Shown here: positions 1 through 54,889 of the stretch, in pieces
Position numbering within the stretch: the first letter of the stretch is position 1
How the letters are laid out: each line of letters opens with the position of its first letter
Source of the DNA: Botryllus schlosseri
Taxonomy: Eukaryota
DNA length: 64,000 bases
Assembly: GCA_051294905.1 (NCBI GenBank)
Contig: CM119372.1
Location: 15,006,001 to 15,070,000, forward strand
Direction: 5' to 3'
The notes under the pieces: model-generated
Seen by the model: the letters and a program-made list of their open reading frames with translations, nothing else
What the model was told of the DNA's origin: nothing
Databases searched by the model: none
Made by a program: the position numbers and the translations under genes

Positions 1-682
1 GAAATTTAAAAGAGGAATGTCCAAGGTCATTTACGGAGAGTTGTTGCACAAACATTTTACCATTCTTTTGCTTATAAGGTTTGGCCTTCCTTGTCTTTCT
101 TTCTTTCCTTTCTCCCCTTTTTTCAATTTCTCTCAACGATTTCTGAATGGTTGTCTCTTTGCGAATAAGTCGGTCCTCCCGTCTCTTGCTCTGCATCTCT
201 TGTTTCTTCAATTCGTTCTTCTTGCTAAGGTGTAATTTATTCAAATCACTGAATTCATCTTCAGTATCAAACTGCTTTCCGTGCAATTTTGCAATTTCGC
301 CTTCAATTTTTGTGGCTTCTTTTTTTCCTTTCTTGTAATTTTCTTTTCTCTCCTTTTGCTTGGCTTTCTCCATCTGTCTCTCCTTCTTCATTTGCAGCTT
401 GTCTTCTTTGCTTTGTGCTCGTAGAAATTCTTCCACTTTTTTGCGGTCCATTTTCCTCTTCTCCCTATCTATTTTTTCCATTGGCTTCCTCAGTAACATG
501 GCTGTTTCTTCCTTATATTCTCGAGAATCTAAATCTGGCTTCATTTGTCGCAGCTTCAGTCTGTTCTTGTCACTCTCAACTTCCCTTAATGCCTTATCTG
601 ATTTTTTACTAGTCTTATTCACAAACTTTGCTCCACCAAGAGTTACTGAACATCTAGGATTCGCTGATTCTGTTGTTGAGCT
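1..682 (-). CDS. Putative K/E/R-rich (coiled-coil-like) coding exon of an unknown host gene; possible donor at 60/61, or it runs off the window edge
   Basis: Stop-free minus frame SSTTESANPRCSVTLGGAKFVNKTSKKSDKALREVESDKNRLKLRQMKPD...RKAKPYKQKN, preceded by a tctttcag acceptor. The plus-strand F/S/L-rich ORFs are its antisense shadow. Confidence 0.55.
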
Positions 683-1094
683 CTGAAAGACAGCTACATT
701 AGTTTTATTCAAATGCTGCAAAAGTGTATCAGAAGGACATCAGCGGGAATCAAGACTTTCATTACCGTTACCGCTGTAAAGTAGGCCTACTGAATAGGGC
801 GATTTTTTTGACATGTAAAAATGCGTCAAAAATTTCTCAAAATTGAAGCGTTAGGTCAAAAAAATGTCAAAATTATTTTGGCCCCTGCATTTCGTTTGTG
901 TCGTAGATTTTACACTGTCGCTGAGCTTATCACTTGATATTTACAGCTTGTAGCCAACTTTATGGGCCCACCGTTGTAGACGGCCCATCGTCTGTTCATT
1001 GTGAATCATAAACGGGCAAATCAAACAAATAGGTTGACATGGTGTTATGGTCAACGTACCGCAATATCCTAACTGAATCAAGAATGCTTGGGCA

Positions 1095-23013: not shown

Positions 23014-23218
23014 CTGAAAGTAATAAACATAATGGAATTGCCAATTTAAAACCCTACTCGTCATTATTATCACTTCATTTCCGTTTTGACTTTCTAGGAT
23101 GTTTATAATAACCGAAACCCTTTAAACTGTGGGCCCTGAGGCCGGATTACTGCGCCAGCAACAAAGTATATAAAAGAAAACATGAAGATCGTGTTTAAAT
23201 ATTTTAATAAAACTTTGA

Positions 23219-23485
23219 TCAAGTTGCTGCATTATTATTTTTTACAGCGTTTGTTTTGCCTCTTGTGGGCCGCACAAAATGATGCCGCAGCAACCTAAAA
23301 ATGTTACAGCCGCCGCTGGACTTCGTATCCTCTTTTGTTAATGCAACAGCTCTCATCCTGAAGAAAATTCTGCTCTGATTGATTTCTTTTTTTCTCGTTC
23401 TTTCGCAATTCTTTATTGTTTTCTTTTCTTTAAAGGCTTTCTTCAATTTCTTTCGCATCGAATCCTTAAATTGTTCACTCAACAT
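23219..23485 (-). CDS. Putative lysine-rich terminal exon (copy at 33718-33984)
   Basis: Open frame DSMRKKLKKAFKEKKTIKNCERTRKKE..NAAT*, downstream of the micro-exon array on the same strand. Confidence 0.35.
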   Translation of the reverse strand: MLSEQFKDSMRKKLKKAFKEKKTIKNCERTRKKEINQSRIFFRMRAVALTKEDTKSSGGCNIFRLLRHHFVRPTRGKTNAVKNNNAAT

Positions 23486-24298: not shown

Positions 24299-24368
24299 GA
24301 GTGGCGCAGTTGGTTAAGCGCCAGCGTCACGACATCAATGGCAGTGGTTCGTACCCCGGTTCGGACTA
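24299..24368 (+). other. tRNA-like Pol III head, probably a SINE 5' end (copy at 34798-34867)
   Basis: Box A TGGCGCAGTTGG and box B GGTTCGTACCC; no convincing cloverleaf acceptor stem. Confidence 0.5.
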
Positions 24369-25377: not shown

Positions 25378-25586
25378 CTCTATACTAGACTTCCATATCC
25401 CAATTACTTTTGATAAGATTGATACCGTACTGTCTCTAATTCATTATACCGACTATCTGGATAAGGCGGATGGTGTATGTCATTGAATGTGATTCGGCAC
25501 ACATGAAATAGAATAGTTAAATAGCCGCACAATGAAATAAATCCGGAACAGTGCAAGTGATAAAAGTAATCAATCCAAAGTATTAC

Positions 25587-28062
25587 CATTGAAGAGTTTC
25601 CGCTACTTGGATGCGGAGTTTGACTTGTGGACGGGTAATTCTGAAACAATAAAACGTAGGGCGATATTGGAAATTTCTGTGTAAAGCAATGGGCAATGGA
25701 CATCTATGACAAAAAGTTTAAACGCCTCAACGTAATATCATATAAATTAAATGTTCCAGTATGCGAATCACATAATCACTATAATGTGATCCAGAAAATG
25801 AAATTGCTTATGGAAAATAAAATTCCGTTCTGACTTCTTTCCAAACGTTGGGTGGTTTGCTTTTTTCGACGCAAAGAATGTCCTTAACAGAATCAAAGGA
25901 AAATTCTGATCAATAGCAATTCAAGCAATCGTAATATTATTTCAGTAACCATTTTTGAGGCAGCTTTATGAATGTCGATTTCCGATTCGGAATCTGTGTC
26001 AGACGGAATCTATAAATCTACACAAACGTAAGATGCTTGGTTACATTTAATAATAAGACGTCAGTATGTAAACCATTGCTAAGAAAAGAATGAGATTTCA
26101 AGACTTCAACGTTTGGCTGATTCAAAAGTTATGAAGTGAGCCCGTGTTATCAGACAATTTACGAGTAAAATCAGATTTGTTAAATCGCTAATACAATGTG
26201 GGGTAAGGAAAAAATTCTCCGATGACTAGTTCATTTCAAAGCTTCAAAGTAACGCCAAAAGGATATGTGAAACGGCAATAATTCAAATTCGCAAGGACTG
26301 CAGATAATCTAATATGTCAACCTTACAATCATTAAGTTGTCTAGGCAATATAAAAATATACCGTTATTCGTTCAATAGGTTCGGCTGTTCCAAATATCTC
26401 GACATTGAGTGTGTTGTCAACCTGTAAATCAAAGATTTGTCTTCATTTAATTGCAATTCATGCCACCGTATCATTAATTCAATAACCATTTCCGAAGCGA
26501 CAATTTCAATTCCGATTCTGATTTCAGACTCCATATCCGACTGAATCTGTAAAGTATATAAAGTGCCCAAAAGTAAAATGATTGGTCATACATTTGAAAA
26601 GGAATACTTCAATACATAAACGATTGCTTAATAACAAAACACTGGGATTTCAAACATTCAGCGTTTGGTCGATTCTTAAGTTATGAAGTATTAAGTCAGT
26701 CCATATTTTATCAAAACATGTTTCGGGCAAAGACTGATTTGTTAACCGGTAAATATAGTGTGAGCAGTAGAAAAGGCCAGGGAGAAACTTTTAACCGATA
26801 ATTACATCGTTTCAAAACCTCAAAGTATCGACAAAGGGTACGTGAGACGGCAACTATTTGAATTCGCAAGGACGGGGTGTCATAACATGTCGGCCGTACA
26901 ATCATTGACAAGAATTAGTTGGAACGATAAATTGTTTACAGAAAATAAATCAATTCTCACTTGTTCCAAAGGACCGGGAGATTTGTGTGCGTCAACGTTC
27001 ACAACATTTTCTACCTGTGAATAAAAGGCAAATTTCGATCAATTTCAATTCATGACGTCGTAATATTATGTCAGATCATCTGTGAAGCGATGTTGTCAAT
27101 CGCAATTTCTCATTTAACAAGGACTACTTCAATATATAAACGATAATAATATATAAATATAATAATATATAAACGAATATAATGGAATTCCAAACCTTGA
27201 TCCTTCAGTTTATTATGAAGTTATTAAGTATAGAGTCCGTGTTATCAGACAACCTTTGATCGGAAACTGATTCGATAAAAAAACTGCTTACTATAATAAT
27301 AGTTAGAACGATAAACTGTCAACAGAAAATAAACTCAACTCTCACCGTTTTCAATGGTTCGGCGAATTTGTAAATTACACCGTTCGCAATATCTTCTACC
27401 TGTGAATCAAAAGTAAATTTCGATCAGTTGTAATTCATAGCATCTTAATATTATTTCAGTAACCAGCTCTGAAGCGACGTTGTGAATCGCAATTCCTAAC
27501 TCAGATTCTTGATCCGGCAGAATCTATAAAGTGACACAAAAGTAAGATGATTGGTCCAATTTGAAAAGGGATACTTCAATATATAAGCGATTTCCAAGTA
27601 TCAAATAACGGAATTTCAAAGCCTTCGGCTTTATTATACAATTATCAAGTTGAGTCGATGTTATCAGAAAATTTGTGAACAAAACTGATTTGTTAAAAAG
27701 TTGATATAGTTTGTGCGGAAGGGTTCGAAACGGCTCATCCAATAACTAGATAATTACAAAGCATGAAAGCACCGTCAAAAGATATGTAAAATTGAAATAC
27801 TTTGAATTCCGATGGACTTGAAATCATAACAAATTGTCCACTAAACAACAGCTATAACAAGTTACAGAAAATAAAATCAATTTTTACCTGTTCCAATGGT
27901 TCGGTTAATTCGTTTAATGCGTCGTTCACAGCATCCTCTACCTGTGAATCAAAAGCAAATTTTGATCAATTAATTCATAAGATCGTAATATCATTTAGTA
28001 ACCAGCCGGGATGAAATGCTGTGAACCGCGATTACGAATTCAGATTCTTGATCCGGCAGAAT
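25587..28062 (-). CDS. Putative host gene segment made of tandemly repeated micro-exon pairs
   Basis: About five degenerate units of 400-550 bp. Phase-0 exons with AG/GT ends at 28003-28062, 27888-27941, 27464-27523, 27346-27399, 26961-27014, 26487-26546, 26362-26421, 25950-26009 and 25587-25640; all are stop-free. Confidence 0.55.
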
Positions 28063-28691
28063 CTATAAAAGTGGTACAAAAGTAAGACGATTGGTCACAT
28101 TTGAAAAGAAAGACGTAGTAAAGCGGCTACAATGACTAGACTACTTCAACATGTCCATGGCGACTGCAGGTTAATTGCGCCAAATTCACTAAAACCAGAT
28201 GGGATCTATGGGGGCCTGCGAAAAGGGCAGTGCGAAGAGAAAGGGGCTGAGAACCATTAAAATAGGCCAGTGTTGGGTGATATCGCCCCCACTGGGTAAT
28301 GTGTGACAAGCTGTTGGGCGGAAATAAATAAAGGGACCGATCGGGGGTGTTAATGCTTGAACATTTAGTCAGAGGTGGTTAATGACCCTGCAACCGGATA
28401 TCGGCACAAAATATACACGAAAACGGTAAACTCCTCACAAACTATCCTCAGATACCGAGATCACCGCGGAAAGTTGACATATTTTTAGTGAATTTACCAG
28501 CGTTCAGATTTAGCTGTATAAAATTCCCGTATTCCCTTTAATATGTCCCCTTTCTCGGATCCGAAAATAAGGGGGCAATGAATATATGTCGAGCTTGAGA
28601 AGTGGGGCGATGAGTGGAAAAAGGTTGGGAACCACTGGATTAGACCATTGTGATGATTAATTTTGTAGTTAATTTTTATTTAAATACTTTG

Positions 28692-33033: not shown

Positions 33034-36000
33034 GGGCCTGCAACCGTTTGGAAATTCTCCCTACGAACCGACAATTGCAGTGGCATTTGAAGTAATAAAT
33101 TACGTTACTTTGCTGTGAAGCCGGGAAAACGTCCTTTTGGGTCGCAAGAAACATTGGTATCGTAGTGAAGACAATAATGTTTTTTACCGTTGGAAAACAA
33201 CAGAACACAGCTGAAGTTAGCTGTTTCTCAAATCCATGAGAAACCGGGTCGATCTAAGGTAGGCCTACTACATGGATGTGTATATTCCTACTTTCGCGAG
33301 AAACTTCTTCGGAAGTACCTTGTGGTTTACTATCATTATTATCATCTATAGGTCGTGTTTTGTCATGATCAATAGGCAATGTTGAGTAATAGCATATTTT
33401 CTTATGAATGAGTAAAGGCCAAATTTAAGAATTAGTTGTAGCTAAACGTCACATATGGACGACGAACTTACCTAACGTAACATCCCAAGAATCGAATCTT
33501 CCAGGTAGAGCACTGAAAGTAATAAACATAATGGAATTGCCAATTTAAAACCCTACTCGTCATTATTATCACTTCATTTCCGTTTTGACTTTCTAGGATG
33601 TTTATAATAACCGAAACCCTTTAAACTGTGGGCCCTGAGGCCGGATTACTGCGCCAGCAACAAAGTATATAAAAGAAAACATGAAGATCGTGTTTAAATA
33701 TTTTAATAAAACTTTGATCAAGTTGCTGCATTATTATTTTTTACAGCGTTTGTTTTGCCTCTTGTGGGCCGCACAAAATGATGCCGCAGCAACCTAAAAA
33801 TGTTACAGCCGCCGCTGGACTTCGTATCCTCTTTTGTTAATGCAACAGCTCTCATCCTGAAGAAAATTCTGCTCTGATTGATTTCTTTTTTTCTCGTTCT
33901 TTCGCAATTCTTTATTGTTTTCTTTTCTTTAAAGGCTTTCTTCAATTTCTTTCGCATCGAATCCTTAAATTGTTCACTCAACATTATACAAATGATAGAG
34001 CGGTGCTGCTAGCAAGGGCTGGGCAAAATCGAGTACCTGAGTGATTCGATTCTGAATCACGTATTACGCTTCAAGTCGAGTATTCGAGTATCACTCATTA
34101 TGACGTCATAACAGTATGTACTATGTCAAAGTTCAAATATGTACCTTTTATGTCACCACAAAGGACTCAATGTCTGTTATCCATCACATTAAAGATACTT
34201 TGGTATTTTTTCGACCATGCCGATTTCATGACTTCGGAAATGTGTTATTTCCAGTAACGTTCGTAGCTTTGTACTATGTCTTGTATCAGGGATATCTAGA
34301 CTAGTAGTCTAGAAATCCCTGTCTTGTATGCTGCGATACGGCCAATCAAGGTTTCAGGGCTTCCTCAGTGGAAAATAGCATCAAAACTATAATTCTCATT
34401 AGAAAATTTGCTTTCAGTATCGAGGAGCGTATAATTTCAGTACTCGAAAAAAATCGTTTTTACTACTCGACTCGAATCATTAAAATAAATGCTCGATTCA
34501 GATTCGAGTACTCGAATCATTGTGCCCAGCCCTACAGCAATGTGACTCCAGTATCTTTACCAAAGAAAATGGTTGCCCGACTTATGAGCATGCGACACAA
34601 TGAAAAACGACAGTTAAGCATGCGACGCTATAGCAGGAGGATGCATTAGAATGGTAACAGGAGCACAGGAACACATGAACATGCTGTGCTGATGTGTCTA
34701 CATGCCCACGAGTCGCATGCTCAAGTGTCGCTTGCTATTGTGTCACATGCTAATATGTGCAAGGACCACCAGTTTTTATTCGCGACACTTGAGAAGCGAG
34801 TGGCGCAGTTGGTTAAGCGCCAGCGTCACGACATCAATGGCAGTGGTTCGTACCCCGGTTCGGACTAACTTCTACGTGTCGGAGGTTATATGAGCTCCTC
34901 ATCGCCGACGTCACTACAGTTCCAGTGACTTGAAAAGCCCAGGCAAAAAGTGGGCCGAGCTATATAAGTCGGCAACAACAAGAGACCATGAAGAAGCGAG
35001 CGTGACAGAGACTGCCTGAAGAGAAGAGTGCCTGAGAGAGTGCATGAACATTCGAGAGACGAAGAAATGCATTCATTGTACCGTATAACATGTAATGCCG
35101 TGAAGCACAAAGCCTTAAACAGGCTATAAGCACCACTGATGTGAATCATAATAATAACTCGCGACACTGGCAAAATAGCATTGTTACAAATTACGAGAGG
35201 TAGTCAGTAACGATGTCTTCCTACTCCTTCAGATTACTCATTAGGTATTGCCTACTTTCACACTTGTGGTTATCATTCTATTTCTACTTCACAGTTTTCA
35301 TTTGTTTATGTAAAACTAGGCCTAGTATACTAACTGTTTACTTACTTTTATGACGGTACTTCTACTTTTACATCAGCGCCAGCAATGATTTCTTCTACCA
35401 CCTCTACTCTACTTTACTCTATACCAGTGTTGGGATGACTCGAGTCACCTTTTTCGTATGACTTGACTTGACTCGAGTCACTTTGCTAAAATGACTTGAC
35501 TTGACTTGACTCGGCGTATCAGAAAAGCGGATTGACTCGTGACTCGGAGCAAAATTCACGAGTCAATTTCAAGTCATCAAGCAATCGAGGTCGATAAAAT
35601 CACTCTATCTTGCATATCGTCGGATTGTTCGAGAAACGCTGGTGTAACCCGTCAAAGCGACCAACCATTCAATGATCGTACGTTTTACTGAAACTCCATT
35701 GTTCTCTCACACTTGACTTGACTTCAATTGTGACTTGACTCGTGACTTGACTTGACTTGACTCGACTTGACTCAAGTGAACTTCAAAAATCGATTGACTT
35801 GACTTGACTCGAGTCAAAATCTGCGATGACTCGAAATAACTTGTGGCTCAAAGGTAGTGACTTGATCCCAACACTGCTCTATACTAGACTTCCATATCCC
35901 AATTACTTTTGATAAGATTGATACCGTACTGTCTCTAATTCATTATACCGACTATCTGGATAAGGCGGATGGTGTATGTCATTGAATGTGATTCGGCACA

Positions 36001-36085
36001 CATGAAATAGAATAGTTAAATAGCCGCACAATGAAATAAATCCGGAACAGTGCAAGTGATAAAAGTAATCAATCCAAAGTATTAC

Positions 36086-38561
36086 CATTGAAGAGTTTCC
36101 GCTACTTGGATGCGGAGTTTGACTTGTGGACGGGTAATTCTGAAACAATAAAACGTAGGGCGATATTGGAAATTTCTGTGTAAAGCAATGGGCAATGGAC
36201 ATCTATGACAAAAAGTTTAAACGCCTCAACGTAATATCATATAAATTAAATGTTCCAGTATGCGAATCACATAATCACTATAATGTGATCCAGAAAATGA
36301 AATTGCTTATGGAAAATAAAATTCCGTTCTGACTTCTTTCCAAACGTTGGGTGGTTTGCTTTTTTCGACGCAAAGAATGTCCTTAACAGAATCAAAGGAA
36401 AATTCTGATCAATAGCAATTCAAGCAATCGTAATATTATTTCAGTAACCATTTTTGAGGCAGCTTTATGAATGTCGATTTCCGATTCGGAATCTGTGTCA
36501 GACGGAATCTATAAATCTACACAAACGTAAGATGCTTGGTTACATTTAATAATAAGACGTCAGTATGTAAACCATTGCTAAGAAAAGAATGAGATTTCAA
36601 GACTTCAACGTTTGGCTGATTCAAAAGTTATGAAGTGAGCCCGTGTTATCAGACAATTTACGAGTAAAATCAGATTTGTTAAATCGCTAATACAATGTGG
36701 GGTAAGGAAAAAATTCTCCGATGACTAGTTCATTTCAAAGCTTCAAAGTAACGCCAAAAGGATATGTGAAACGGCAATAATTCAAATTCGCAAGGACTGC
36801 AGATAATCTAATATGTCAACCTTACAATCATTAAGTTGTCTAGGCAATATAAAAATATACCGTTATTCGTTCAATAGGTTCGGCTGTTCCAAATATCTCG
36901 ACATTGAGTGTGTTGTCAACCTGTAAATCAAAGATTTGTCTTCATTTAATTGCAATTCATGCCACCGTATCATTAATTCAATAACCATTTCCGAAGCGAC
37001 AATTTCAATTCCGATTCTGATTTCAGACTCCATATCCGACTGAATCTGTAAAGTATATAAAGTGCCCAAAAGTAAAATGATTGGTCATACATTTGAAAAG
37101 GAATACTTCAATACATAAACGATTGCTTAATAACAAAACACTGGGATTTCAAACATTCAGCGTTTGGTCGATTCTTAAGTTATGAAGTATTAAGTCAGTC
37201 CATATTTTATCAAAACATGTTTCGGGCAAAGACTGATTTGTTAACCGGTAAATATAGTGTGAGCAGTAGAAAAGGCCAGGGAGAAACTTTTAACCGATAA
37301 TTACATCGTTTCAAAACCTCAAAGTATCGACAAAGGGTACGTGAGACGGCAACTATTTGAATTCGCAAGGACGGGGTGTCATAACATGTCGGCCGTACAA
37401 TCATTGACAAGAATTAGTTGGAACGATAAATTGTTTACAGAAAATAAATCAATTCTCACTTGTTCCAAAGGACCGGGAGATTTGTGTGCGTCAACGTTCA
37501 CAACATTTTCTACCTGTGAATAAAAGGCAAATTTCGATCAATTTCAATTCATGACGTCGTAATATTATGTCAGATCATCTGTGAAGCGATGTTGTCAATC
37601 GCAATTTCTCATTTAACAAGGACTACTTCAATATATAAACGATAATAATATATAAATATAATAATATATAAACGAATATAATGGAATTCCAAACCTTGAT
37701 CCTTCAGTTTATTATGAAGTTATTAAGTATAGAGTCCGTGTTATCAGACAACCTTTGATCGGAAACTGATTCGATAAAAAAACTGCTTACTATAATAATA
37801 GTTAGAACGATAAACTGTCAACAGAAAATAAACTCAACTCTCACCGTTTTCAATGGTTCGGCGAATTTGTAAATTACACCGTTCGCAATATCTTCTACCT
37901 GTGAATCAAAAGTAAATTTCGATCAGTTGTAATTCATAGCATCTTAATATTATTTCAGTAACCAGCTCTGAAGCGACGTTGTGAATCGCAATTCCTAACT
38001 CAGATTCTTGATCCGGCAGAATCTATAAAGTGACACAAAAGTAAGATGATTGGTCCAATTTGAAAAGGGATACTTCAATATATAAGCGATTTCCAAGTAT
38101 CAAATAACGGAATTTCAAAGCCTTCGGCTTTATTATACAATTATCAAGTTGAGTCGATGTTATCAGAAAATTTGTGAACAAAACTGATTTGTTAAAAAGT
38201 TGATATAGTTTGTGCGGAAGGGTTCGAAACGGCTCATCCAATAACTAGATAATTACAAAGCATGAAAGCACCGTCAAAAGATATGTAAAATTGAAATACT
38301 TTGAATTCCGATGGACTTGAAATCATAACAAATTGTCCACTAAACAACAGCTATAACAAGTTACAGAAAATAAAATCAATTTTTACCTGTTCCAATGGTT
38401 CGGTTAATTCGTTTAATGCGTCGTTCACAGCATCCTCTACCTGTGAATCAAAAGCAAATTTTGATCAATTAATTCATAAGATCGTAATATCATTTAGTAA
38501 CCAGCCGGGATGAAATGCTGTGAACCGCGATTACGAATTCAGATTCTTGATCCGGCAGAAT
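36086..38561 (-). CDS. Duplicate of the micro-exon-pair array
   Basis: 25587-28062 shifted by 10,499. Confidence 0.55.
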
Positions 38562-41500
38562 CTATAAAAGTGGTACAAAAGTAAGACGATTGGTCACATT
38601 TGAAAAGAAAGACGTAGTAAAGCGGCTACAATGACTAGACTACTTCAACATGTCCATGGCGACTGCAGGTTAATTGCGCCAAATTCACTAAAACCAGATG
38701 GGATCTATGGGGGCCTGCGAAAAGGGCAGTGCGAAGAGAAAGGGGCTGAGAACCATTAAAATAGGCCAGTGTTGGGTGATATCGCCCCCACTGGGTAATG
38801 TGTGACAAGCTGTTGGGCGGAAATAAATAAAGGGACCGATCGGGGGTGTTAATGCTTGAACATTTAGTCAGAGGTGGTTAATGACCCTGCAACCGGATAT
38901 CGGCACAAAATATACACGAAAACGGTAAACTCCTCACAAACTATCCTCAGATACCGAGATCACCGCGGAAAGTTGACATATTTTTAGTGAATTTACCAGC
39001 GTTCAGATTTAGCTGTATAAAATTCCCGTATTCCCTTTAATATGTCCCCTTTCTCGGATCCGAAAATAAGGGGGCAATGAATATATGTCGAGCTTGAGAA
39101 GTGGGGCGATGAGTGGAAAAAGGTTGGGAACCACTGGATTAGACCATTGTGATGATTAATTTTGTAGTTAATTTTTATTTAAATACTTTGCAGAGGTGGT
39201 CGGTAAAAATTACTTCTACTTTTTCTACTACTTGTAATACTTACTTGGCTAACCTAATTTTCAGCTGCTACTACTTTGTGGTATTTTTTAATTTACCTAA
39301 TTACTTCTGTCATTTTCAGTCGGTCAAGTAAAATTAGTATATTCCTTCAATTAGAGAGACTGAGGAATTTCGGAGCTGTTTTCACGGCGTACCAACAAAA
39401 ATTTAATTTTCACAAAAGTTTCACGCAAAGTAGGTATGGAGTGACAAATGTGTTTTCACTCAAGTATCGGTGAATATAATTGCTTAGTTCATCTCACGTC
39501 GCATTGTCGTCCACATGACATGTTTCATCACATATGACCAGAGGTGGTCAAAGTAGTCAAGAAAGCTACTCAAGCAGAAGTAAAAGTATCGACGAAAAAA
39601 TCTACTCAAGTACGAGTAGAAGTACTGTCTCCATAAGCAACCTAAAACCGCTTGAAGTAGAAGTAGAATTGACTGATTTCAAAAGTACTCAAGTAAGTAA
39701 GTAGTTGTGATAACGATTCTAATTCGTTCACATGGATTGTAAAAAGGTGCAAATTGAGCATTGCGAAAGGTGACGAGCATGGTTCATATTGATGCATACC
39801 AGCAGATATCCAATTTTCGATAGCATCATGGGATGAAAATGATAGTATTGATGTGGAAATACGATACTAATCCTCTGTTTCCTCGAACAGCCCGTTTTAG
39901 AAACAGCATGGTATGGCGCCATCCCCCATATTATAACGCCCGTAGTTTAGTCGAAGAGCAATACGGAGAAGTGGTATAGCATACGGTGTAAACACTTTAC
40001 GCGATTAGTAAACGTTAATAAAAGATATGGTGGACCGTAAAAATGCCATATTGTGTAGCTTTATTTGCGTAAATTAAAGGCAATGATACACTTGCTTTAT
40101 ACTTCAACATGTATGTTAACCAGACAAAAGAACCGATAGTAATTAAAACTCAAAGTACAAGACACTGGGAGTTGAAAGTGAAACATAAATACTACTTATA
40201 AAAGCGGAACATCTAATTCATGCCTTCAGCCCAAAAGTTTAAAGGTGGTATGCTAAAACAGCTCTAAAACTAACAAAAAAAGTCAGAGTCCACTTTTCCA
40301 GGTTAGGACACGCCATGGACATGCTAAATTACGATATGACAAGTAAATGCTAGATTGCGAAACATCAGATTCAAACGTTATGATGAGCCATATATACTGA
40401 GATGAATTATTTCATATGGGCGAAATTATATTCATCGATACTTTCGTGAAATCATACGGATCACTTCGTATCCACTGCGCGCAAAGCGCGACGAAAATTC
40501 TGGGCTTTACCAAACTTTTATGAAAATTAAATGTTGATAATCCGTGAAAACAGCCCCGAAATTCCTCAGGATATCTTCCTACTTCTACTTGACAAACTGA
40601 AAATAGAGAAAAGTAAGTAAGTAGATCACAAAATATTATGAAGTAGAAGTAGAAGTAGCGAAAATCAGATCTACTTGAGTAAGTACCACAAGTAGAGGAA
40701 AACTACTTGAGTACTTCGAAAAAGTAGAAGTACTTCGTTACTGACCACCTCTGCATATGACTCATCAAAACGGTTGTCGCTACCGTTTCACAAACTATAA
40801 TTTACCTATTGTATCGTAATCTAGCAGCACGCGGCCTGTCCTAATCTGAAAAGTTGTCTTAAACCTTTTTGAGCGTTAGACTTGTTTTAGCAGACCACCG
40901 TTGAACTTTCTGGACAAAAGAGATGAAATATATTTCCGCTTTTTAAAAATGGTATTTGCATTCTCGTTTAATTTGCATCATCATTACTTTGAGTTCTTCT
41001 AATTCATTTCAGTCCTTTTGTCTGGAGAATATACATGATTAAGCTTAAAATCTGTATTTTCAGAAAGTAATAGTACAGTCTATGACATTTTTTACGGTCC
41101 GCCATAGTTTTTATTGCATGCCATGACATATTCTGAAACGGGGTGTTCCGGTAAACAAATTATAACAATCGATTTTCCATAGAAAAACTTTCACTACGAT
41201 CCCGTATGATGCGGTCGCATGCTTATGCTGTCGACGATTCAAAGCCTACGATTTGGGTTGCATCAATATGAGTCAAGCTTCTCTTCCCTCTCCGAATAGC
41301 TCAACTTGAGTCGCTACTTTTATTTCTACTTTGACCACCTCTGTACTTTTCCATCCATCCACAAGTTCAATTTCACTTCAAGTCTCCAAAAACAATGGTG
41401 AATTTGAAATCAAAGCCTTACTCAGACAAATATTGTTCTTTTCAGCGCCTCAATGTAGAAAGATTTCTACAATAATATTGGTATAGGTCCGACAGGCTGG

Positions 41501-41964
41501 ATTACGAAGTCCGTATGCGGATCAGAGTTGGATCAATTACGATATTTTAATTCAATTACAATTACTTCCTTGCATGTTTCAATTACATTACAATTACAAT
41601 TACTCAATGCTAAAAATATCAAATTACAATTACAATTACAATTACTTTTAAACAGGTAATTGCTACAGTAAAGAGGTGTTCTTTGACAACCGTAGCGACG
41701 TAACTAGCAACAATCTCAAGCTATTCATGTTCCATTCCTGATATGTAGAATACCCTTTAATTAAAAAAAAAACTCGAACGTATTCGAACTATTCCTAATC
41801 ATGAGTACTGAAAACTACAAGCACAGAAAAATGTTTCAAGCGACTGTTAAGAACCACAGGTTTGAGCGACTAACAGCGAATAGGCTACAGGACAGTCAAT
41901 GTAATGTAATAAACGATTGGGCTACTCAGAGCTGAGTCATTTTTTTCTATTTGTCGAATGTTAA

Positions 41965-42219
41965 TGTTATGTTCGTGCATTTTACGTTGGTATCGTTTGT
42001 TTCTTGTTTGTCTAGGATTAGTAATTACCGCCAATCATTATTTCCTCGTGTGTCGTTCTTCGTATTTATACCCTGTGTTCTGTTGTCTCGTGGTCATTTC
42101 ATTTAACTGAACTCTGGATCGTGTCGCCTGTATTGAAGTTATACTGCTGGTAATATACTGATTTCGTATTGCAACCTCGTCGTATTGAGTTATTGTTCGA
42201 ACAAGATTAGAACATAACA
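41965..42219 (+). repeat. 5' LTR (255 bp)
   Basis: tgttatgttc...gaacataaca 10-bp terminal inverted repeat. Confidence 0.95.
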
Positions 42220-42221
42220 AT

Positions 42222-42239
42222 TGGTGTCAGAAGTCGGAT
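42222..42239 (+). promoter_or_regulatory. Primer-binding site, tRNA-Leu-like
   Basis: tggtgtcagaagtcggat starts 2 nt after the LTR; one mismatch to TGGTGTCAGAAGTGGGAT. Confidence 0.8.
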
Positions 42240-42268
42240 TCATAGTTATTTCTGCGACGAAGATAAGC

Positions 42269-43273
42269 ATGGATTCAGGTATACAGAAGATTCTTGAGAT
42301 GCAGCAAGAGATGATGGTGCAACAACAAGCAAAGCATGCCGAGGCAATGGCAAAAGTCATGACAGAAATGGCGCAATTGACGCAGAGGTTGAATCCCGGT
42401 GCGTCAACATCTGAAGCAGCCGCTCCCAAGTTTGATTCGTTCGCAAAATCAAAAGAGAAATGGGACCAGTATCTGCAACGATTCAACCATCACCTTGCAA
42501 TTTACGGCATTTCCAACATGGAGAAGAAAAGAGCGTGTCTACTCTCATGGGTCGGACCTGAAACGTACTCGCTTCTACGTAATTTGTTTGGTGCTGCTGA
42601 TGTCAGTGCGCAAACCTTCGATGCGTTGACTGAGAAGTTGTCTACACACTTCAAGGACTCAATTCATGTGCAGGCAGCCAGGTACGAATTTTACAATTGC
42701 AAAATGCAGCCGGGACAATCATACGCCGATTGGATCGCTACTCTACGCGGAATCTCCAAGGATTGCAACTTCATATGCTCAAGAGATGGCTGTGATCAGA
42801 GCTACGTTGATGAGCTAATGCGCGATCTCATCATTAAAGAAACGCCGCACGCGGATGTGAGACGGCATTGTCTAACACAAACCAATCCATCCCTCGACGA
42901 CTTTCTCAAAGTAGCCGCAACACACGTGAGAACGCTGGAAACCGATAGGGTTATCCAGGGCCAGAGTAGCGGTAAAGACACTTCCATCGTCAACAAAATG
43001 ACGGGAAGTTATCAGAAGGGGAGAAAACCTTCCAAATCCATTCAAGGCAACTTCCCGGAAAGACTGAAATCCTGTAGCCGCTGTTTCATCGATCACCAGA
43101 GAAAAGACTGTCAATATCGACATGCAGTATGTCAGAAATATGGTCGTAAAGGTCATATCAAACCTGTGTGCATGTCTACCAAACCTAGTATCACGCAGCA
43201 GGTCACATCCGTCAATTTCTGCTCAGTACCGCTCCTCTCCTTCGACATCGATCAACTATATCGACGCGTATAG
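42269..43273 (+). CDS. gag: Gypsy gag (3' end frameshifted)
   Basis: FDSFAKSKEKWDQYLQRF, LLSWVGPETY, RYEFYNCKMQPGQS; two zinc knuckles, the second with a C-to-Y change (CQKYGRKGH). Confidence 0.9.
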   Translation: MDSGIQKILEMQQEMMVQQQAKHAEAMAKVMTEMAQLTQRLNPGASTSEAAAPKFDSFAKSKEKWDQYLQRFNHHLAIYGISNMEKKRACLLSWVGPETYSLLRNLFGAADVSAQTFDALTEKLSTHFKDSIHVQAARYEFYNCKMQPGQSYADWIATLRGISKDCNFICSRDGCDQSYVDELMRDLIIKETPHADVRRHCLTQTNPSLDDFLKVAATHVRTLETDRVIQGQSSGKDTSIVNKMTGSYQKGRKPSKSIQGNFPERLKSCSRCFIDHQRKDCQYRHAVCQKYGRKGHIKPVCMSTKPSITQQVTSVNFCSVPLLSFDIDQLYRRV

Positions 43274-43289
43274 GAAACCAGCTCTGGAT

Positions 43290-46200
43290 CAACTCCAGCA
43301 TCAACGGTATTCCGTTGCCGGCACAGTGGGACACTGGTGCACCCTCCGCCATGGTGGGATTGACTGGGTACAAAACTTTGGGCTCCCTGAATCTCTCAGC
43401 ATACCATTGCTCTTTCGTAGCGTACGGCGACAAGCCTTTGAAAGTGAAAGGTATTTGCACTGTAACTGTGCAGGTGGGTTCTGAAGTTCGAGTTGGCTTG
43501 AAATTGGTAGTTCTCGACGAACACCGTGGGCAGGGCCGTAACAGCACTTCGTCAGGCCCCCCCCAAAACGTTGGCCTTGGGCCCCCCATAGGGTGATAAA
43601 CATAACTTCTGGGGGGCTTCGCCCCCCAGACCCCCATTCGGCTATCCGCTTTTTTACGCTATTTGACATCAGTATTGGGGGCCCGTTTTGTGGGTCAGCT
43701 TTTCCCGCCTAGACGCGCGAAGCGCGAAAAATTTCACAGTAAATCATGATTGAATCGGTCAATATGATCGGGAATTACATATATACTGCTATCAATTTTG
43801 ATCCTCTCTCTACTCACGTAATCAGATTTACCGGTAGAGCTGAGCGAGGTCTGTTTTAAAACGTAGGACCGCCCAATAATAATTAGACATCTTCGGGCGT
43901 ACCCGTTGGCACGAACGAAACAGCACTTCGTCAGCCCGCCCCCCCACAAAAATTGGGTTTTGGGTTCTCATAGGGTGATAAACATCACAGTGTTCGCTTT
44001 TGCCACGAAATTAGCTGCACTGTTTAGTGAGCCAGCTCGAAGCGCGAAAATTTTCGATAATTCATTATATAATCGGTCAATAAGATCGGGAATTGCATAA
44101 ATATTGCTATCAATATCTTGTCCTCTCTGCTCACGTTATCAGATTTACCGGAAACTGTAGGGCCCGTAAATAATAATTAAACATCATCGGGCGGGCGGAC
44201 CCGTTGGTATGACTTCGTTACATGATTTTATTTCGTGACCTCCTGTCTGCTATATCAAAAATACAGAATCGCTCTAACGTACTAAACTAAAAGACGCACA
44301 GGATTTCAAATTGCTATTTCTTCACTGGCATATATTTTTCCTGCTGGATGGTATTTGTCTTATGAGGTTCAGATTGCCAAGGCAGGAACATATGGCGCCT
44401 ATGGACAATTAAACCTATCATTTTGTATATATAACGAAGTTTTCGGTCTGCGTAAGGGCAGTCCGTTTCGGCCAAGCTTTTCGCGCTGCCGATCGTTCTG
44501 GCACACTTCTTGGAGTCGCATGGAATAAGCTCTAAATAGTTATATATCTTGGTGCGTAGTGGCGTGTTAATGGCCAACGCCGATATGTCCATTTCTATAA
44601 ATCTTGCGTGTTTTTTCTTGGGGGAAGAGTACCAAATAATCAAGATATTTGGCAACTTTAAATCGCTCCCAGCGCGAAAAATTTTGGAAAAAATCGCATA
44701 AATTTTCAAAAAATACTCTATAATTTATGCTAATTCACGAAATAATTTGGGGCCCCCTTCGAGCTCGGGCCCCCCCCCAATTGGGGGGTTTGGGGTGCGG
44801 CAGTTACGGTGCTGACCGTGGGCAAAACATTTTTGGTCTCGATTGGAGCGATGCTTTCTCCATGACCGCTAAGGGAACTTCTGCTTTGGATGCAATTTCC
44901 CCGCGGATGGTCAAATCCCAATAATGTAATACTATTGACATTTCTGATTCGAACGACAAATTGGTATCTTTTCAGTCCAAATTTCCCTCCGTTTTCTCTA
45001 ATGTGTTAGGACGATGCACCAAGACAAAGGTGACTATTCACTTGAAACCTAATGCCAAACCCGTATTTAACAAGCCACGCCCTTTGCCTTTCGCAAGGCA
45101 AATCGCTGTTCAAACCGAATTGGATAGATTAGTCAATCAAGGTATTCTCGAACCAATCAATTACAGTGATTGGGCAGCACCAATTGTTGCCGTCACTAAA
45201 TCGAATGGATCAGTACGCATTTGTGGTGACTTCAAAGCATTGAATCAACAAATCCAGATAGATCAACATCCCCTGCCCTCCTTGGATGAAATCCTTAACA
45301 AGTTACAGGGTGGTTGTATTTTCACGAAAATTGATCTGGCCGATGCTTATTTTCAGCTAGAATTAGATGATGATGCGAAGAATTTGTGTGTCATCAACAC
45401 GCAATTCGGTCTATTCCGTTATCGACGCATGTGTTTCGGAGTCGCATCTAGTCCCGCCAATTTTCAACGCTGTATTGATGCCATGATCGCCGGCTTACCC
45501 GGTGTTGCTAGTTTTATCGGTGACATAATCGTTACTGGCATTGATGAACGCGACCATTTCCGCAACTTATCGCTACTCTTTGAGCGCCTCACCGAATACG
45601 GTTTCACCGTCAACTTCGCTAAATGTGAATTTTTCAAAAGTAGTATCGAGTACCTTGGTCACATAATCGACAAGGACGGCAAACGCCCGTCTAACAAATC
45701 CGTTGAAGCAATCAAACAGTTGCCTAAACCTCAGGATGTTCGCCAGCTACAGGCATTCCTGGGCAAAGTCAATTATTATCGCGCGTTTATTCCTAATTTT
45801 ACGAATAAAGCTGCTTCGTTGTATCGCCTTCTTCAAAAAGACGCGAAATTCATTTGGAATACGGACTGTGACGCAGCTTTTCGCATTCTCAAAAACGACG
45901 TAATCGACGCTACGCAGTTAGCTCATTATGATGTAAACAAGCAGCTCATTTTGTCAACGGATGCTTCTCAATTTGGAATCGGCGCTGTCCTCTCAATCGA
46001 GCACAATGGCGAAGAGAGACCGATCGCACACGCATCGAAAACGCTTTAGGATTCGCAAAAATCCTACTCTCAAATCGAGAAGGAAGCTCTGTCAATCATT
46101 TACGGAGTCACTAAATTTCGTCAATTCTTGTATGGTACAAAATTTACGCTCGTGACGGACCACAAACCGCTTTTAGCTATTTTCTCGCCGGACAAGAAAA

Positions 46201-48829: not shown

Positions 48830-49619
48830 GTTTAGCCTATATTGTAATTCACAAAGTTTTCTGTTGCTACTGAAGTATGGGAACAGTTTAGCGTGACTGA
48901 ATTATCTAGTAATAACGCAGCACGCATAGAACACCGATGTAAATAGGCTACTTAATACATGTGGTGACTGTTTACTAAGGCCTAAAGGCCCGTCGTCTTC
49001 ATTCTGGTTCGTACTGGATTTTCACTGGGGCGACGAATAAATGATGGATTAAATGATTATTTTATGTTGCGATTGTCAGGTTTCCATGAAAATGTAATTG
49101 AGATTGTAATTGATCAAAATTTTGATCAAATTACAATTACAATTACATGAAAAAATGTAATCAATTACATTCAGCTCAATTACAAATTACAATTGATCCA
49201 ACTCTGATGCGGATACATTAGTTTCTTTAAAGCAATGAGTAGCAAATACAGAATTACCATCTTTGAGTCAGAGTTCAGTCGGAAAAAATCCTACGTGGGC
49301 AATATTAGGACTATATTGAGTGGAATAAGTCAACAGAGAAGTCAGCGTAATAGGCTACCTGATCGTCCAGTTTCGACTCGGTATGGACACATTCGGAAGA
49401 ACATGGTCTTTCTGTAGATTTTGTAGCCTTCTAAACATTGGAGCGCGTGAATCAAAGTGCCATGAATTATTAAACCCAACAATACGTTGACCACCAGCAT
49501 CAACATGGATATTTTGCCGCATATGTCATATTATAAAGTTATATGACAGAGTAACCATACCTGTTCCTTTGTCATTGGATTTGTGCTTAGCGGTTGTTCT
49601 TGAGACTTTTCAAAATCTT

Positions 49620-52495
49620 TTTCCGACAAATCCTGTCATTAGAACTTATGTTACATGCATGGCGGATTGAAAAAAGGGTAATATGCTACCAATGACTTGT
49701 CTTCCATTGCATTCAAAGATGATACATTCAAACCCGATTCAAAAATTTTTCGCGCCAGATCCTGTTATTAGAACTTGTGTTATATCATTGCTGGATCAAA
49801 AAATAAGTAGTATGCTACCAATGGCCTGTCTTCCATTGCGTTTAAATTGGATACTTTCAAATCCGATTCTAAATCTTTTCGCTCCAGATCCTGTCATTAG
49901 AACTTGTGTTACATCCATGATGGATCAAAAAATAATTAGCATATATACTACCAATGACTAGGGCTGGGCAAAATCGAGTGCCTGAGTGATTCGATTCTGA
50001 ATCACTTATTACGCTTCGAGTCGAGTATTCGAGTATCACTTATTATGATGTCACAACAAAATGTACCATGTCAAAGTTCAAATATGCACATTTCAAGCGA
50101 CCACAAAGAACATAATGTCTGTTACCCGTCACATCAATGATACTTTGGTATTTTTTCGACCATACCGATTTCATTGTACTTCTTGACAATGTTGTGGGAT
50201 GATCATGACTTCGGAAATGTGTCATTTCCAGTAACGTTCGTAGCCTTGTACTATGTCTCGTATGTTGCGACACGGCCAATCAAGTTTCAAGACTACCTCA
50301 GTGAAAAATAGTATGAAATCTACAATTCTCGTTCGTAAATTAACTTTCATTTGTGAGGAGCGTACAATTACAGTACTCGAAAAAATCGTCATTTACTACT
50401 CGACTCGAATCATTAAAATTAATACTCGATTCAGATTCGAGTACTCGAATCATTGTGCCCAGCCCTACCAATGACTTGTTTTCCATTGCATTCAAAGATG
50501 ATACATTCAAATCCGATTCTGAATCTTTTCGAGCCATTTCCTGTCATTAGAACTTGTGTTATATCATTGATGGATCCAAAAATAAGTAGTATGCTACCAA
50601 TGGCCTGTCTTCAATTGCGTTTGAATTGGATACTTTCATATCCGATTCAAAATTTTTGCGCGCCAGAACCTGTCATTAGAACTTGTGTTCCATCCTTGAT
50701 GGATCAAAAAATATGTAGCATATATACTACCAATGACTTGTCTTCCATTGCATTCGCAGAGGATACATTCAAATGCGATTCTAAATCTTTGCGCGCCAGA
50801 TCCTGTCATTAGAATTTGTGTTATATCCTTGATGGATAAAAAATAAGTGGCATATATACTACCAATGACTTGTCTTCCATTGCATTCAAAGAGGATACTT
50901 TCAAATCCGATTCAGAATTTTTGCGCGCCAGATCCTGTCATTAGAACTTGTGTTATATCCTTGATGGATCAAAAAATAAGTAGCATATATACTACCAATG
51001 AGTTGTCTTCCATTGCATTCGCAGAGGATACATTCAAATGCGATTCTAAATCTTTGCGCGCCAGATCCTGTCATTAGAATTTGTGTTATATCCTTGATGG
51101 ATAAAAAAACAAGTGGTATATATACTACCAATGACTTGTCTTCCATTGCATTCAAAGAGGATACTTTCAAATCCGATTCAGAATTTTTGCGCGCCAGATC
51201 CTGTCATTAGAACTTGTGTTATATCCTTGATGGATCAAAAAATAAGTAGCATATATACTACCAATGAGTTGTTTTCCATTGCATTCGCAGAGGATACATT
51301 CAAATCCGATTCTAAATCTTTTCGCTCCAGATCCTGTCATTAGAACTTCTGTTACATCCTTGATGGATCAAAAAATAAGTAGCATATATACTAGCAATGA
51401 CTTGTCTTCCATTGCATTCATAGATGATACATTCAAAAGCGATTCTGAATCTTTTCGCGCCATTTCCTGTCATTAGAACTTGTGTTATATCATTGATGGA
51501 TCAAAAAATAAGTAGTGTGGTACCAATGGCCTGTCTTCCATTGCGTTTAAATTGGATACTTTCAAATCCGATTCTAAATCTTTTCGCTCCAGATCCTGTC
51601 ATTAGAACTTCTGTTATATCCTTGATGGATCAAAAAATAAGTCACATATATACTACCAATGACTTGTCTTCCATGGCATTCAAAGAGGATACGTTCAAAT
51701 CCGATTCTAAATCTTTGCGTGCCAGATCCTGCGATTAGAATTTGTGTTATATCCTTGATGGATCAAAAAATAAGTCACATATATACTACCAATGACTGGT
51801 CTTCCATGGCATTCAAAGAGGATGCGTTCGAATCCGATTCTAAATCTTTGCGCGCCAGATCCTGCCATTAGAAGTTGTGTTACATCCTTGATGGATCAAA
51901 AATAAGTAGCATATATACTACCAATGACTTGTCTTCCATTGCATTCTCAGAGGATACATTCAAATTCGATTCCAAATCTTTTCGCGCCAGATCCTGTCAT
52001 TAGAACTTCTGTTACATCCTTGATGGATCAAAAAATAAGTCACATATATACTACCAATGACTTGTCTTCCATGGCATTCAAAGAGGATACGTTCGAATCC
52101 GATTCTAAATCTTTGCGCGCCAGATCCTGCGATTAGAATTTGTGTTATATCCTTGATGGATCAAAAAATAAGTCACATATATACTACCAATGACTTGTCT
52201 TCCATGGCATTCAAAGAGGATGCGTTCGAATCCGATTCTAAATCATTGCGCGCCAGATCCTGCCATTAGAAGTTGTGTTACATCCTTGATGGATCAAAAA
52301 TAAGTAGCATATATACTACCAATGACTTGTCTTCCATTGTATTCTCAGAGGATACATTCAAATTCGATTCCAAATCTTTTCGCGCCAGATCCTGTCATTA
52401 GAACTTCTGCTACATCCTTGATGGATCAAAAAATAAGTCACATATATACTACCAATGACTTGTCTTCCATGGCATTCGAAGAGGATACATTCGAT
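49620..52495 (+). repeat. 133-bp tandem satellite, about 17-18 units
   Basis: The unit ctaccaatgacttgtcttccattgcattc...cctgtcattagaact...gatggatcaaaaaataag recurs every 132-133 bp. Confidence 0.97.
49959..50467. mobile_element. TAGGGCTGGGCA-family MITE inserted in the satellite
   Basis: TIRs plus perfect TSD ccaatgac. Confidence 0.93.
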
Positions 52496-53612
52496 CCCGG
52501 ATCTTGTGTTATGTTACAAGCCATATCCTGAAATGGTGGAAGTATAACGTAGACGTGAAATTAATGTCGTGAATATTTACACCAGTACAATAGAAGTATA
52601 GCGATGTCCAATTAATATCAGAACTATTTAAACTGGGAGTTGGAAATGAAGATTTGAAAAAGTATTTAAGCGAGCAGTTGGAAAAAGTAGATTTAACGGA
52701 TCGAATGTGGCTGATTACTCTAGGAATTGCAGGTTCGTTGTTGTTGTTGTTGTTTATTGAAATAAAAATTTGGCGCTTATCACCTGTTGATCTTTTGCAC
52801 CACGATCAATAATTGCGTAAGAAATGAAATGCAGTCAATGAGGGTGTACGTATTGGATAGACATAATATTTACAAAATAGCATTTCAGTGAAACGAAAGA
52901 ATATCAAGGCCAGAAAAAGGAAATTCCGGAGCGGTAAAACATTAAACATCCACGGCTATTCACAAAATTACGGTTGCAGGATAACACAAATTCAATTGTG
53001 GAAGGAATGATTTGATCCTCGGTGAGGAGAATTTCAAGGCGGAAATCAACATTCAATTCGGCACATTTAGCAATGAGGAAAAGTACGATGGAAATCATAT
53101 TTTGCGCAGTGGGCAAAAAAAATGTTCAGTGGTTTCCGGATACCGACAAAGAGAGCAAAGTAGAGATTCCACTGAACCTATTCCAAACAAATCGCTATTC
53201 AGACGACAGTGACTGGACTGAAGACGAAACAGGATACTTTCTTCTACGCGGTTTCTACGTGCCGGTGGTTTGTTCGCAATAGATGAATTAAAAATTTTAT
53301 AATGATGTCCGTTGTCGGATGCTTGAAATTAAATTACAAGGTGAATCCACAAATAAGTGTGGCTGGACACGATGACTTGAGCGCTCAAATCTGAATCGTG
53401 TATAATTCCAATAATTCGAGTCGAGCAGTGAGATATGATTCTTTCGATAGTTTATTTTTCAACGAAATTATAGTTTCGATAATATTTTCCACTGAGGAAG
53501 CCTTGAAAACTTGATTGGTCGTATCAAAACATGTAGTACAGACCTACGTAGGCTGGTGGGAATTTATCAGGGAAGTCGTTATCAACCCACTTCGTTGTCA
53601 CAGATCGATATG

Positions 53613-53814: not shown

Positions 53815-54375
53815 TTTCTTAGCAAATTTGTAATTATAACATCTTTGAATCTGAGTCAAGTCTTTAAAATACGCTATGTGTGTAATATTAGGACAATATT
53901 GGGCAGAATGAAACCACAAACAAAGTGATCCTAATAACTAACTTTCTACTCAGTCTGGCCATGTTCTGAAGGACATGGCCTTTCTGTCGACTTTGTCTTC
54001 TAAACCGTGGACCTCTTGAATTCAATCCAGGGATACCTAGGTATCCCTCTCATAATCGTATGAAATGTTGACCCAAAATACGTTGACCATCAGCATCAAC
54101 ATGAACATTATGTCACGCGTATCCTGCTATAGCCTAAAATTATATGACAGTGAAACCTTACCAGTTCCTTTGTCATCGGTTTTGCGCGAATCGGTGGTTT
54201 TTCAGATGTATCAAAATCTTTTCCCGCCAAATCCTGCAATTAGAAATGTGTTAGATCCTTGGCAGATTGACATGAAAATAAGTAATACCAATGACTTGTC
54301 TTCTACTGCATCCAGAGAGGATATATTCAAACCCGAATCTTGTGATTTGTTACAAGTCAGACCCGCCTATATGTG
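53815..54375 (+). repeat. Second unexpanded homolog of the satellite locus
   Basis: Aligns by eye with 49235-49740 and with the sequence just right of the satellite. Confidence 0.75.
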
Positions 54376-54889
54376 AAAGGTATCGTGGTAATTGCGTAAA
54401 AATGACTGTTGCATGGAATTTACCTGATGGTTTATGCCCTCGGCCACGGCTTCCAAAGCGCTCTGCTTCCCGTCTGGTTTTGAGTTCTAAAAAGTGTACG
54501 AATAAAATTGGACAATTAGTGAAATTGAAACAATGGAAAGACGTATCCTGACTAAAGCCTTCACGATAATATCTTCGTGGTTATGTCACTACAAAACTGC
54601 GGTACTCAACCCGTGGGGATTTCAGGAGTCTCAACTTAACCATTATCATATCCTTACTAAACAAAGTCAGACCTAAGTTGATTGGAGGGAGTATTTTTAA
54701 GGGGTGGATTTTAGGTTAAGGTGAATAAAGACTCCGAATACATCAAAGGTGGGAAATGAAAAAAGGGTTGGGAATCACTGCCACATACAGGAGTCAAATA
54801 TAGGAGCTGTCTCCATGCATACCTCGAATCTTGAATGGTTGTAAATCATGGTCAGGGTCGTGAATTGAAATTTTATAGGCCGCTAGAAA

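Follow-up and report, generated by a model that had tools for sequence, protein, structure and literature searches.

Paired small exons repeated in a Botryllus schlosseri gene are spliced in one order and carry an AKAP-like helix pattern across their junctions

The minus strand of a 64,000-nt stretch of Botryllus schlosseri DNA (positions 15,006,001 to 15,070,000 of contig CM119372.1, assembly GCA_051294905.1; hereafter the window) carries a degenerate repeat in which two small exons, A and B, recur as a cassette. The question raised by this locus is whether the cassettes are expressed, in what order their exons are joined and what the encoded protein might do. A reading made from the sequence alone had proposed a protein built of about five such units, open to combinatorial exon skipping and with a helix loosely resembling those by which A-kinase anchoring proteins (AKAPs) bind the RII subunit of protein kinase A (PKA). 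The gene and the family to which it belongs are, in our judgement, very probably as described below.

When aligned to each other, the ~540-bp repeat units were 67-80% identical, far above chance. Four A exons of 60 nt each and four B exons of 54, 54, 54 and 60 nt were found, and all eight (8/8) had the lengths proposed for them, were in phase 0, free of stops and bounded by AG and GT. Exon A1 (28003..28062) and exon B1 (27888..27941) encode the first and second halves of junction helix 1; they are followed by A2 (27464..27523), B2 (27346..27399), B3 (26961..27014), A4 (26487..26546), B4 (26362..26421) and A5 (25950..26009), all on the minus strand. The A-B introns of the whole units are 61, 64 and 65 nt long. 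Spacing was 539, 977 (two units) and 537 nt from A to A, and 542, 385 and 593 nt from B to B. Complete units are 1, 2 and 4 only: the remnant of A3 (27077..27135, minus strand, ends approximate) has neither an acceptor nor a GT donor, and the remnant of B5 (25836..25890, minus strand, ends approximate) has lost its acceptor. The repetition is therefore real, while the number of whole units is lower than the five proposed. The label micro-exon, in its usual strict sense, does not extend to exons of 54-60 nt, which are simply small.

Four sequencing runs (X1, X2, X13 and X17) were aligned to window positions 22535-31460. X17 is on record as raw RNA; X1 and X2 are contig runs, presumed to be RNA, and contigs lose rare forms. 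Splice joints are known from the 15 of 140 that were listed. Six GT-AG joints were present in the contigs of both X1 and X2: A1-B1, B2-B3, B3-A4, A4-B4, B4 to a further exon C, and C to a terminal exon D. The raw reads of X17 contained B2-B3 (7 reads), B3-A4 (4), A4-B4 (5), B4-C (6) and C-D (12), and A1-B1 was not among them. The splicing predicted from the sequence was thus recovered in RNA. No cassette joint was listed for X13 (~12.9 million records).

Neither B1-A2 nor A2-B2 is among the listed joints. Exon A2 is taken to be included because the depth of X2 is the same at all six joints (7.13), which is read as a single contig, and because the exon model accounts for the bin depths of this run: a single isoform reproduced them to ~2 nt in 9/9 bins, and the depth for A2 plus B2 implied 116 nt against the 114 expected. 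The listed joints, together with this inference from depth, form the single path A1-B1-A2-B2-B3-A4-B4-C-D, in which B3 is used although it has no A partner, and the dead A3 is bypassed within the 331-nt B2-B3 intron. Exon A5, the sequence and splice dinucleotides of which are intact, did not prove to be a working exon: RNA depth was zero in its bin (25813-26110) in 4/4 runs, and B4 is joined directly to exon C at 25640.

Exon C (25587..25640, minus strand, 54 nt) is rich in S, P and T and is common to the C2b and C8 paralogues (see below). The coding part of exon D (23219..23464, minus strand) comprises 81 codons and a stop, and an ATTAAA poly(A)-type signal (23203..23208, minus strand) lies 10 nt past the stop; RNA depth was zero in the next bin (22833-23130) in 4/4 runs. 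The spliced chain is an open frame of 233 codons, followed by the stop and the ATTAAA. These findings identify a transcribed gene, the cassette exons of which are spliced in one order.

The genome (495.5 Mb in 219 contigs) was searched for paralogues, and the search proposed in the sequence-only reading yielded cassette-bearing genes on C2 and C8, with two cassettes per gene (C2:17.28 Mb, C8:16.893 Mb and C8:16.989 Mb), and fragments on C3. DNA near the C-terminal exon was inspected at 6 of 12 family loci and upstream DNA at 4 of these; the others were covered by genome-wide cassette searches. In paralogue C8a, 32 candidate exons were hand-picked from the list of splice sites; all are in phase 0, measure 24-108 nt (median 60) and together give 670 stop-free residues, 62% of them S, E, K, D, P, Q or R, with no hydrophobic stretch. 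Its homologue of exon C is followed by a long K/E-rich exon and then by several conserved C-terminal exons, which occur at 12 loci on four chromosomes. Judged from these sequences, the family appears to consist of mostly disordered proteins built of ~30 small phase-0 exons and to be restricted to tunicates.

That the array is a non-coding satellite or an assembly artefact mimicking exons is hardly conceivable, since spliced reads occur in a run on record as RNA and collinear paralogues lie on other chromosomes. Self-comparison of the sequence did reveal a near letter-for-letter doubling of 10.5 kb, which could be an assembly error: the block 22535-33033 recurs head-to-tail with 1 mismatch in 10,499 nt, and the second copy (33034..43537, no strand assigned) holds the cassettes, C and D again at +10,499. 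A false doubling would leave the cassette array within one copy unaffected; the artefact reading is refuted for the array and could apply to the doubling only.

The single path bears directly on the model put forward from the sequence, in which symmetric exons are skipped in combination to generate variants, as in the micro-exon genes (MEGs) of schistosomes. The internal exons are indeed all in phase 0, the A donors are weak in 8/8 intact cassettes (GTTACT, GTTATT or GTGATT), and X1 gave two contigs, of depths 113 and 91, with a break between B1 and B2 that could conceal a minor branch after B1. Nevertheless, the six cassette joints make one path, and the uniform joint depth and bin depths of X2 fit one isoform; no exon-skipping or other alternative joint was found among those listed, at low read depth and with the loss of rare forms from contigs. 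Skipping is therefore unsupported and, if it occurs, may be rare.

Dimensions also differ. PMC10526429 describes MEGs as a lineage-restricted, fast-evolving multigene family with many small internal exons divisible by three, and the same holds here (multiples of three in 8/8 RNA-supported internal exons and in 24/24 upstream candidates, the candidates having been partly chosen for phase 0). In that account, however, MEG exons measure 6-81 nt, mostly 15, lie between long introns and encode proteins of at most 189 residues, whereas the exons here are 24-108 nt with a median of 60 (C8a) or 54-81 nt (window), the introns inside the arrays are 57-65 nt, and the protein would have ~800 residues or more. 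No signal-peptide-like hydrophobic stretch was found in the traced exons, which do not include the start exon (highest 19-residue hydropathy 0.94). Membership of the MEGs was rejected on exon and intron sizes, and a MEG-like generator of variants is very unlikely.

What the cassettes encode was compared with the helix of AKAPs. As described in PMC12083921, AKAPs are defined by an amphipathic helix of 14-18 residues with hydrophobic positions 2, 5, 6, 9, 10, 13, 14 and 17, and a consensus LxxxAxxIVxxAIxxA is given in PMC3682517. Eight intact cassettes from the window and the paralogues were scored, one C2b cassette with a short A exon being omitted, and 5,825 windows from 18 long open reading frames (ORFs) served as background (maximum 16; 0.36% at 10 or more). 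The best consensus window started at A residue 13 in 8/8 cassettes, with scores of 10-19, and consists of A residues 13-20 and the first 8 residues of B, so that it spans the A-B junction. Single exons scored lower, at most 8 for A alone and at most 7 for B alone.

The hydrophobic pattern led to the same junction. The best window had 7-8 of the 8 hydrophobic positions in 7/8 intact cassettes and 6 of 8 in window cassette 4, and at least 7/8 of the positions were found in paralogue C8a at 2/31 adjacent exon pairs, both of them A-B. The 16-residue register is without proline in 8/8 cassettes. A pair of small residues at A17-18 and the hydrophobic pairs are spaced as PMC12083921 and PMC3682517 describe for AKAPs, and the first C8 cassette has, by eye, a central A-A-S and a V in common with Ht31 as printed in PMC2169452. 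The F/Y-A pair at helix positions 1-2, which PMC12083921 associates with RI-selective (type I) helices, is absent in 8/8 cassettes (columns 12-13). By computation, the chain is polar except at the junction helix, where its sole amphipathic helix pattern occurs in the AKAP register. The resemblance suggested by the sequence-only reading is thereby upheld as a likeness, in one register in all eight cassettes and reached by neither exon alone.

The B exons of all 8 intact cassettes begin with GT (an invariant Val), so that the A-B intron ends in AG/GT, the form of a recursive splice site. When the A-B intron is read through, its first codons carry the helix pattern on.

The genome encodes what we take, from sequence features, to be an RII subunit and two SPA17-like proteins with docking/dimerization (D/D) domains. 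The gene of the RII-type subunit (L043, C12:5.02 Mb) is intronless, with one frame of 417 codons. A complex was predicted for two copies of the RII D/D domain and an unspliced stand-in, in which exon A2 was read into the intron and 5/7 motif positions were the same. The score was 0.46, compared with 0.04 for the best of 3 controls; the runs agreed on at least 85% of contacts, and partner pLDDT was at least 67. The mark applied to such predictions was reached by 51/78 solved complexes and 2/108 mismatched pairs, and passes at a score of 0.60 or lower comprised 5 of the 78 solved complexes and all 4 passing mismatches. The prediction lends weak support to docking on RII; the pass may also come from the likeness of the stand-in to solved AKAP-RII complexes.

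A plausible, though tentative, reading is that the junction helices dock on D/D domains and give the protein a multivalent, AKAP-like function. The cassettes would belong to the 3' half of a constitutively spliced gene, in which exon C and a basic terminal exon come after three A+B cassettes and an orphan B, within a tunicate-restricted family of intracellular, mostly disordered scaffolds. Each junction helix would fit the groove of a D/D domain, most likely that of PKA RII or of a SPA17-like protein, and the protein would act like a multivalent AKAP in which the docking helices are assembled by splicing. The Cys and basic tail of exon D might perhaps target it to a membrane.

Selection was examined in the same exons. 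For A, dN/dS was 0.40 over 8 exons. Third codon positions were the most diverged in both A and B exons, and the lengths of intact B exons (54, 60 and 39 nt) are always multiples of three, while the A-B introns are free to vary between 61 and 65 nt. The exon constraint expected from the sequence was thus seen in the frame-keeping lengths and in A, but barely in B.

Several results weigh against the docking reading. Two of the five units are down to one half. The cassettes are homologous, so the agreement of all eight is close to one observation. Each 38-residue cassette offers 23 windows, and ~8% of such stretches would score 10 by chance; cassette 1, at 19, is alone in exceeding the whole background. 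At the final motif position, 6/8 cassettes have E or T instead of the A of the consensus. Window cassette 4 did not outperform shuffled sequences (hydrophobic register P=0.54, moment P=0.58), and the hydrophobic register of cassette 1 gave P=0.09. Any amphipathic helix, moreover, scores on such a motif. The B exons are near neutral (dN/dS 0.69-0.85), and at the DNA level A exons were more diverged than the A-B introns (p=0.33 vs 0.27), so that the comparison of exons with introns, which the sequence-only reading had proposed as a check, showed exons no better conserved. A start exon or 5' end was not found within 56-73.5 kb, and database searches with single-exon queries, the sensitivity of which is low, found no relatives outside this genome.

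The same gene could instead use its helix to fold on another partner, be it a cytoskeletal protein, a coat protein, a membrane or the protein itself, the AKAP likeness being mere amphipathic periodicity. This is rather unlikely. The chain has no second such helix and this one is conserved, while its last position departs from the consensus in 6/8 copies, and the invariant I1 and E8 fall outside the AKAP register, as would be expected of another partner; on the other side stand the AKAP spacing of the small A17-18 pair and the hydrophobic pairs and the weak pass of the stand-in with RII D/D in the prediction. The 152 residues before exon D have a net charge of -22, which would make a poor fit to anionic membranes.

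Near-neutral B exons would also suit a view of the cassettes as mostly passive spacers, phase-0 units drifting in a fast-evolving disordered protein of which this copy may be decaying. The shortened last exon, the dead A3 and B5, the fresh duplication, the apparent compensating frameshifts in exon D and the lack of a listed cassette joint in X13 agree with it, as does the second array described below (9 synonymous to 28 non-synonymous variants; absence of stops at P=0.12). Yet the A exons keep a dN/dS of 0.40, intact exon length variants are all multiples of three whereas introns vary freely, splicing was accurate in three runs, and the tail frame of exon D is common to C2b; we consider the spacer view distinctly unlikely.

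Cassettes could be gained and lost by unequal crossing-over without a frame break, because every exon is in phase 0: there are two per gene in three paralogues and three here. An A exon, the donor of which is weak, would go unrecognised unless paired with B over the 61-65-nt intron. Such paired recognition would explain why A5 has been silent since the acceptor of B5 was lost and why B3 survives alone. Silent A5 next to dead B5 is a natural test of paired-exon recognition.

In its widest form, which we regard as unlikely, the docking reading makes these genes tunicate-born multivalent scaffolds of PKA (or of a SPA17-type protein), in which a docking site is never encoded by one exon alone and arises only after A-B splicing, and valency follows from the cassettes gained and lost (2 in the paralogues, 3 here, at most 6 if the doubling is real and read through). 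Valency could then be tuned per cell type via the weak A donor, and exon C could choose between the short membrane-type tail D and a long K/E-rich exon with a C-terminal domain 25 kb downstream. AKAPs have only a short helix in common, so lineage-specific ones escape homology searches. If binding is true, an anchoring motif would be divided by a splice junction and multiplied in units of two exons; natural variants in one genome, which differ in having 2 or 3 helices, in their orphan halves and in the length of the C-terminus, would then make the birth and dosage of docking motifs testable. If it is false, the family would be undescribed yet fairly ordinary, a fast-evolving family of disordered proteins.

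Among known systems, the gene may work like the multi-helix AKAPs (AKAP220 and SKIP, with the Ht31/AKAP-Lbc helix and axonemal RSP3 as further comparisons), although binding, the property by which AKAPs are defined, is only predicted here. Several helices per long chain and an amphipathic helix of 14-18 residues at the published spacing (PMC12083921, PMC3682517) are common to both. Unlike these AKAPs, with which no homology was found beyond the motif, this gene has each helix divided exactly in two over a pair of phase-0 exons, which are amplified together as one cassette. The Cys and basic tail of exon D would be the candidate for an AKAP-type targeting region.

Disordered regions built of repeated small symmetric exons are found in titin PEVK, calpastatin and triadin, and calpastatin repeats a binding motif in a disordered chain. 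The amplification of polar, charged modules exon by exon is similar; no homology was found, and the motif repeated here resembles instead a D/D-docking helix.

The bicycle genes of aphids are described in PMC9168663 as lineage-restricted salivary effectors with many small exons of one phase, internal exons being almost all of phase 2. The present family is likewise lineage-restricted and recognisable by many small same-phase exons; its exons are in phase 0 throughout, and identity with the bicycle genes was rejected. Botryllus histocompatibility factor (BHF), according to PMC12065747, is tunicate-specific, has helices between disordered regions and is targeted to membranes in a cysteine-dependent manner. 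A possible likeness of the family's last exons to BHF, a tunicate-specific disordered protein with such targeting, is one of description only, and BHF is described there as one gene in the fuhc locus, compared with at least 12 loci on four chromosomes here.

The cassettes are probably preceded by further parts of the same gene. A second array (49561..52527, minus strand), a 133-bp tandem repeat at 49.6-52.5 kb, contains 19 candidate exons in phase 0, of which one measures 75 nt and the other 18 measure 72 nt, with introns of 57-61 nt, AG acceptors in 19/19, GT donors in 18/19 and no stops; its product would be rich in S, L, D, E and N. Beyond it lie three candidate phase-0 exons of 63, 78 and 72 nt (54162..54486, minus strand), collinear with the C8 paralogues, and three more of 81, 72 and 72 nt in a 515-bp tandem duplicate (54990..55732, minus strand), the farthest upstream part traced. 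In two C8 paralogues, exons that precede the cassettes are collinear with these six candidates at 54.2-55.7 kb, and because of this collinearity the whole is read as one gene of ~800 residues or more, interrupted by a retrotransposon. From sequence, then, the array would probably be the upstream part of the cassette gene. Protein-level selection on it is weak: over 17/19 units, the 75-nt first and the divergent last being omitted, dN/dS was 0.72, and its variants are about neutral. The 72-nt array was found in the genome at this locus only, apart from one inverted fragment.

An inverted fragment of the upstream exons of the same gene lies at window 21672-22060 (plus strand), matches 52365-52708 and 54155-54364, and has a 1-nt insertion in its first exon. 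An element resembling a miniature inverted-repeat transposable element (49960-50464) is inserted at the donor of a 72-nt exon, the end of which is duplicated with the GT preserved; a relative of this element (81%) lies in the C-D intron at 23516-24043.

Exon D is lysine-rich, ends in a Cys and a basic amphipathic tail, and is a truncated form of the K/E-rich exon of the family. Both the window gene and C2b end in exon D and have its tail reading frame in common, and the differences between the two homologues look, by eye, like compensating frameshifts. A long K/E-rich phase-0 exon of a family member is present at 2..683 (minus strand), with conserved C-terminal exons to the left of the window; it would represent a gene of its own or else an alternative 3' end. 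No homologous exons upstream of it were found in a splice-site scan of 700-25,500. Window 22905-23081, past the poly(A) signal and with zero RNA depth, matches C2b DNA directly after the C2b cassettes, where there is an exon-like piece with strong splice sites.

The family is apparently undescribed: no publication on it was found in the literature, supplements lying outside the search. Against the protein database, the C-terminal exon of a neighbouring member gave 0/10 candidates that scored, exon D 0/52 and a 5-sequence exon alignment 0/8000, which is weak evidence. HMMER, run with a 45-column profile against 1.84 billion representatives, returned 1 match, an unnamed Logan protein of 54 residues. 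In 21 Pfam scans, no query matched above a curated cut-off, and the best E values against PDB sequences were 0.89 and 2.1. The ESM Atlas gave clusters of hypothetical proteins with low recognition (2109), one set being Plavaka in 11% of members, which is a lead only. AlphaFold gave one C-terminal exon of the family a pLDDT of 51.6.

Other members (L038 at C2:15,086.9-15,087.5 kb, L023, L024 and L028) have amplified yet another phase-0 exon, the third such type, which is 69-78 nt long and D/S-rich; different paralogues thus amplify different exons. Family loci at C2:15.08-15.15 Mb and 15.32-15.40 Mb recur at a distance of ~242-254 kb and score equally, some of them being convergent pairs separated by a few kb, and are taken as a larger segmental or haplotype duplication.

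The 10.5-kb doubling has its junction at 33033/33034, with a 5-nt microhomology that coincides with the initial five bases of an element lying within a Gypsy-type retrotransposon. This position points to tandem duplication mediated by a transposon end or by microhomology. A genuine, very recent duplication would fit better than a merged second haplotype, an assembly error being possible as well. The Gypsy-type element itself lies at 41965-47974 (plus strand), in the presumed long intron of the gene, with 250-bp long terminal repeats 98.8% alike, a ~1.3-kb insertion at 43531-44800 and a partial copy at 31466-33033.

A tRNA-like short repeat occupies 24294-24620, and many RNA reads stop at 24294 in adapter-like sequence; it is probably an abundantly transcribed family of short interspersed elements. 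A 622-codon ORF at 6839-8707 (minus strand) resembles a Penelope-type reverse transcriptase with, by eye, a GIY-YIG-like end, and has remnants at 22314-22754. On C9, a cellulose-synthase match (E 3.8e-4, over the cut-off) and a GH6 match are ~3.3 kb apart, a pairing of GT2 with GH6 that is a hallmark of tunicates among animals. Three tandem GH6 matches near a cellulose-synthase match at C9:14.99-15.07 Mb suggest several CesA copies.

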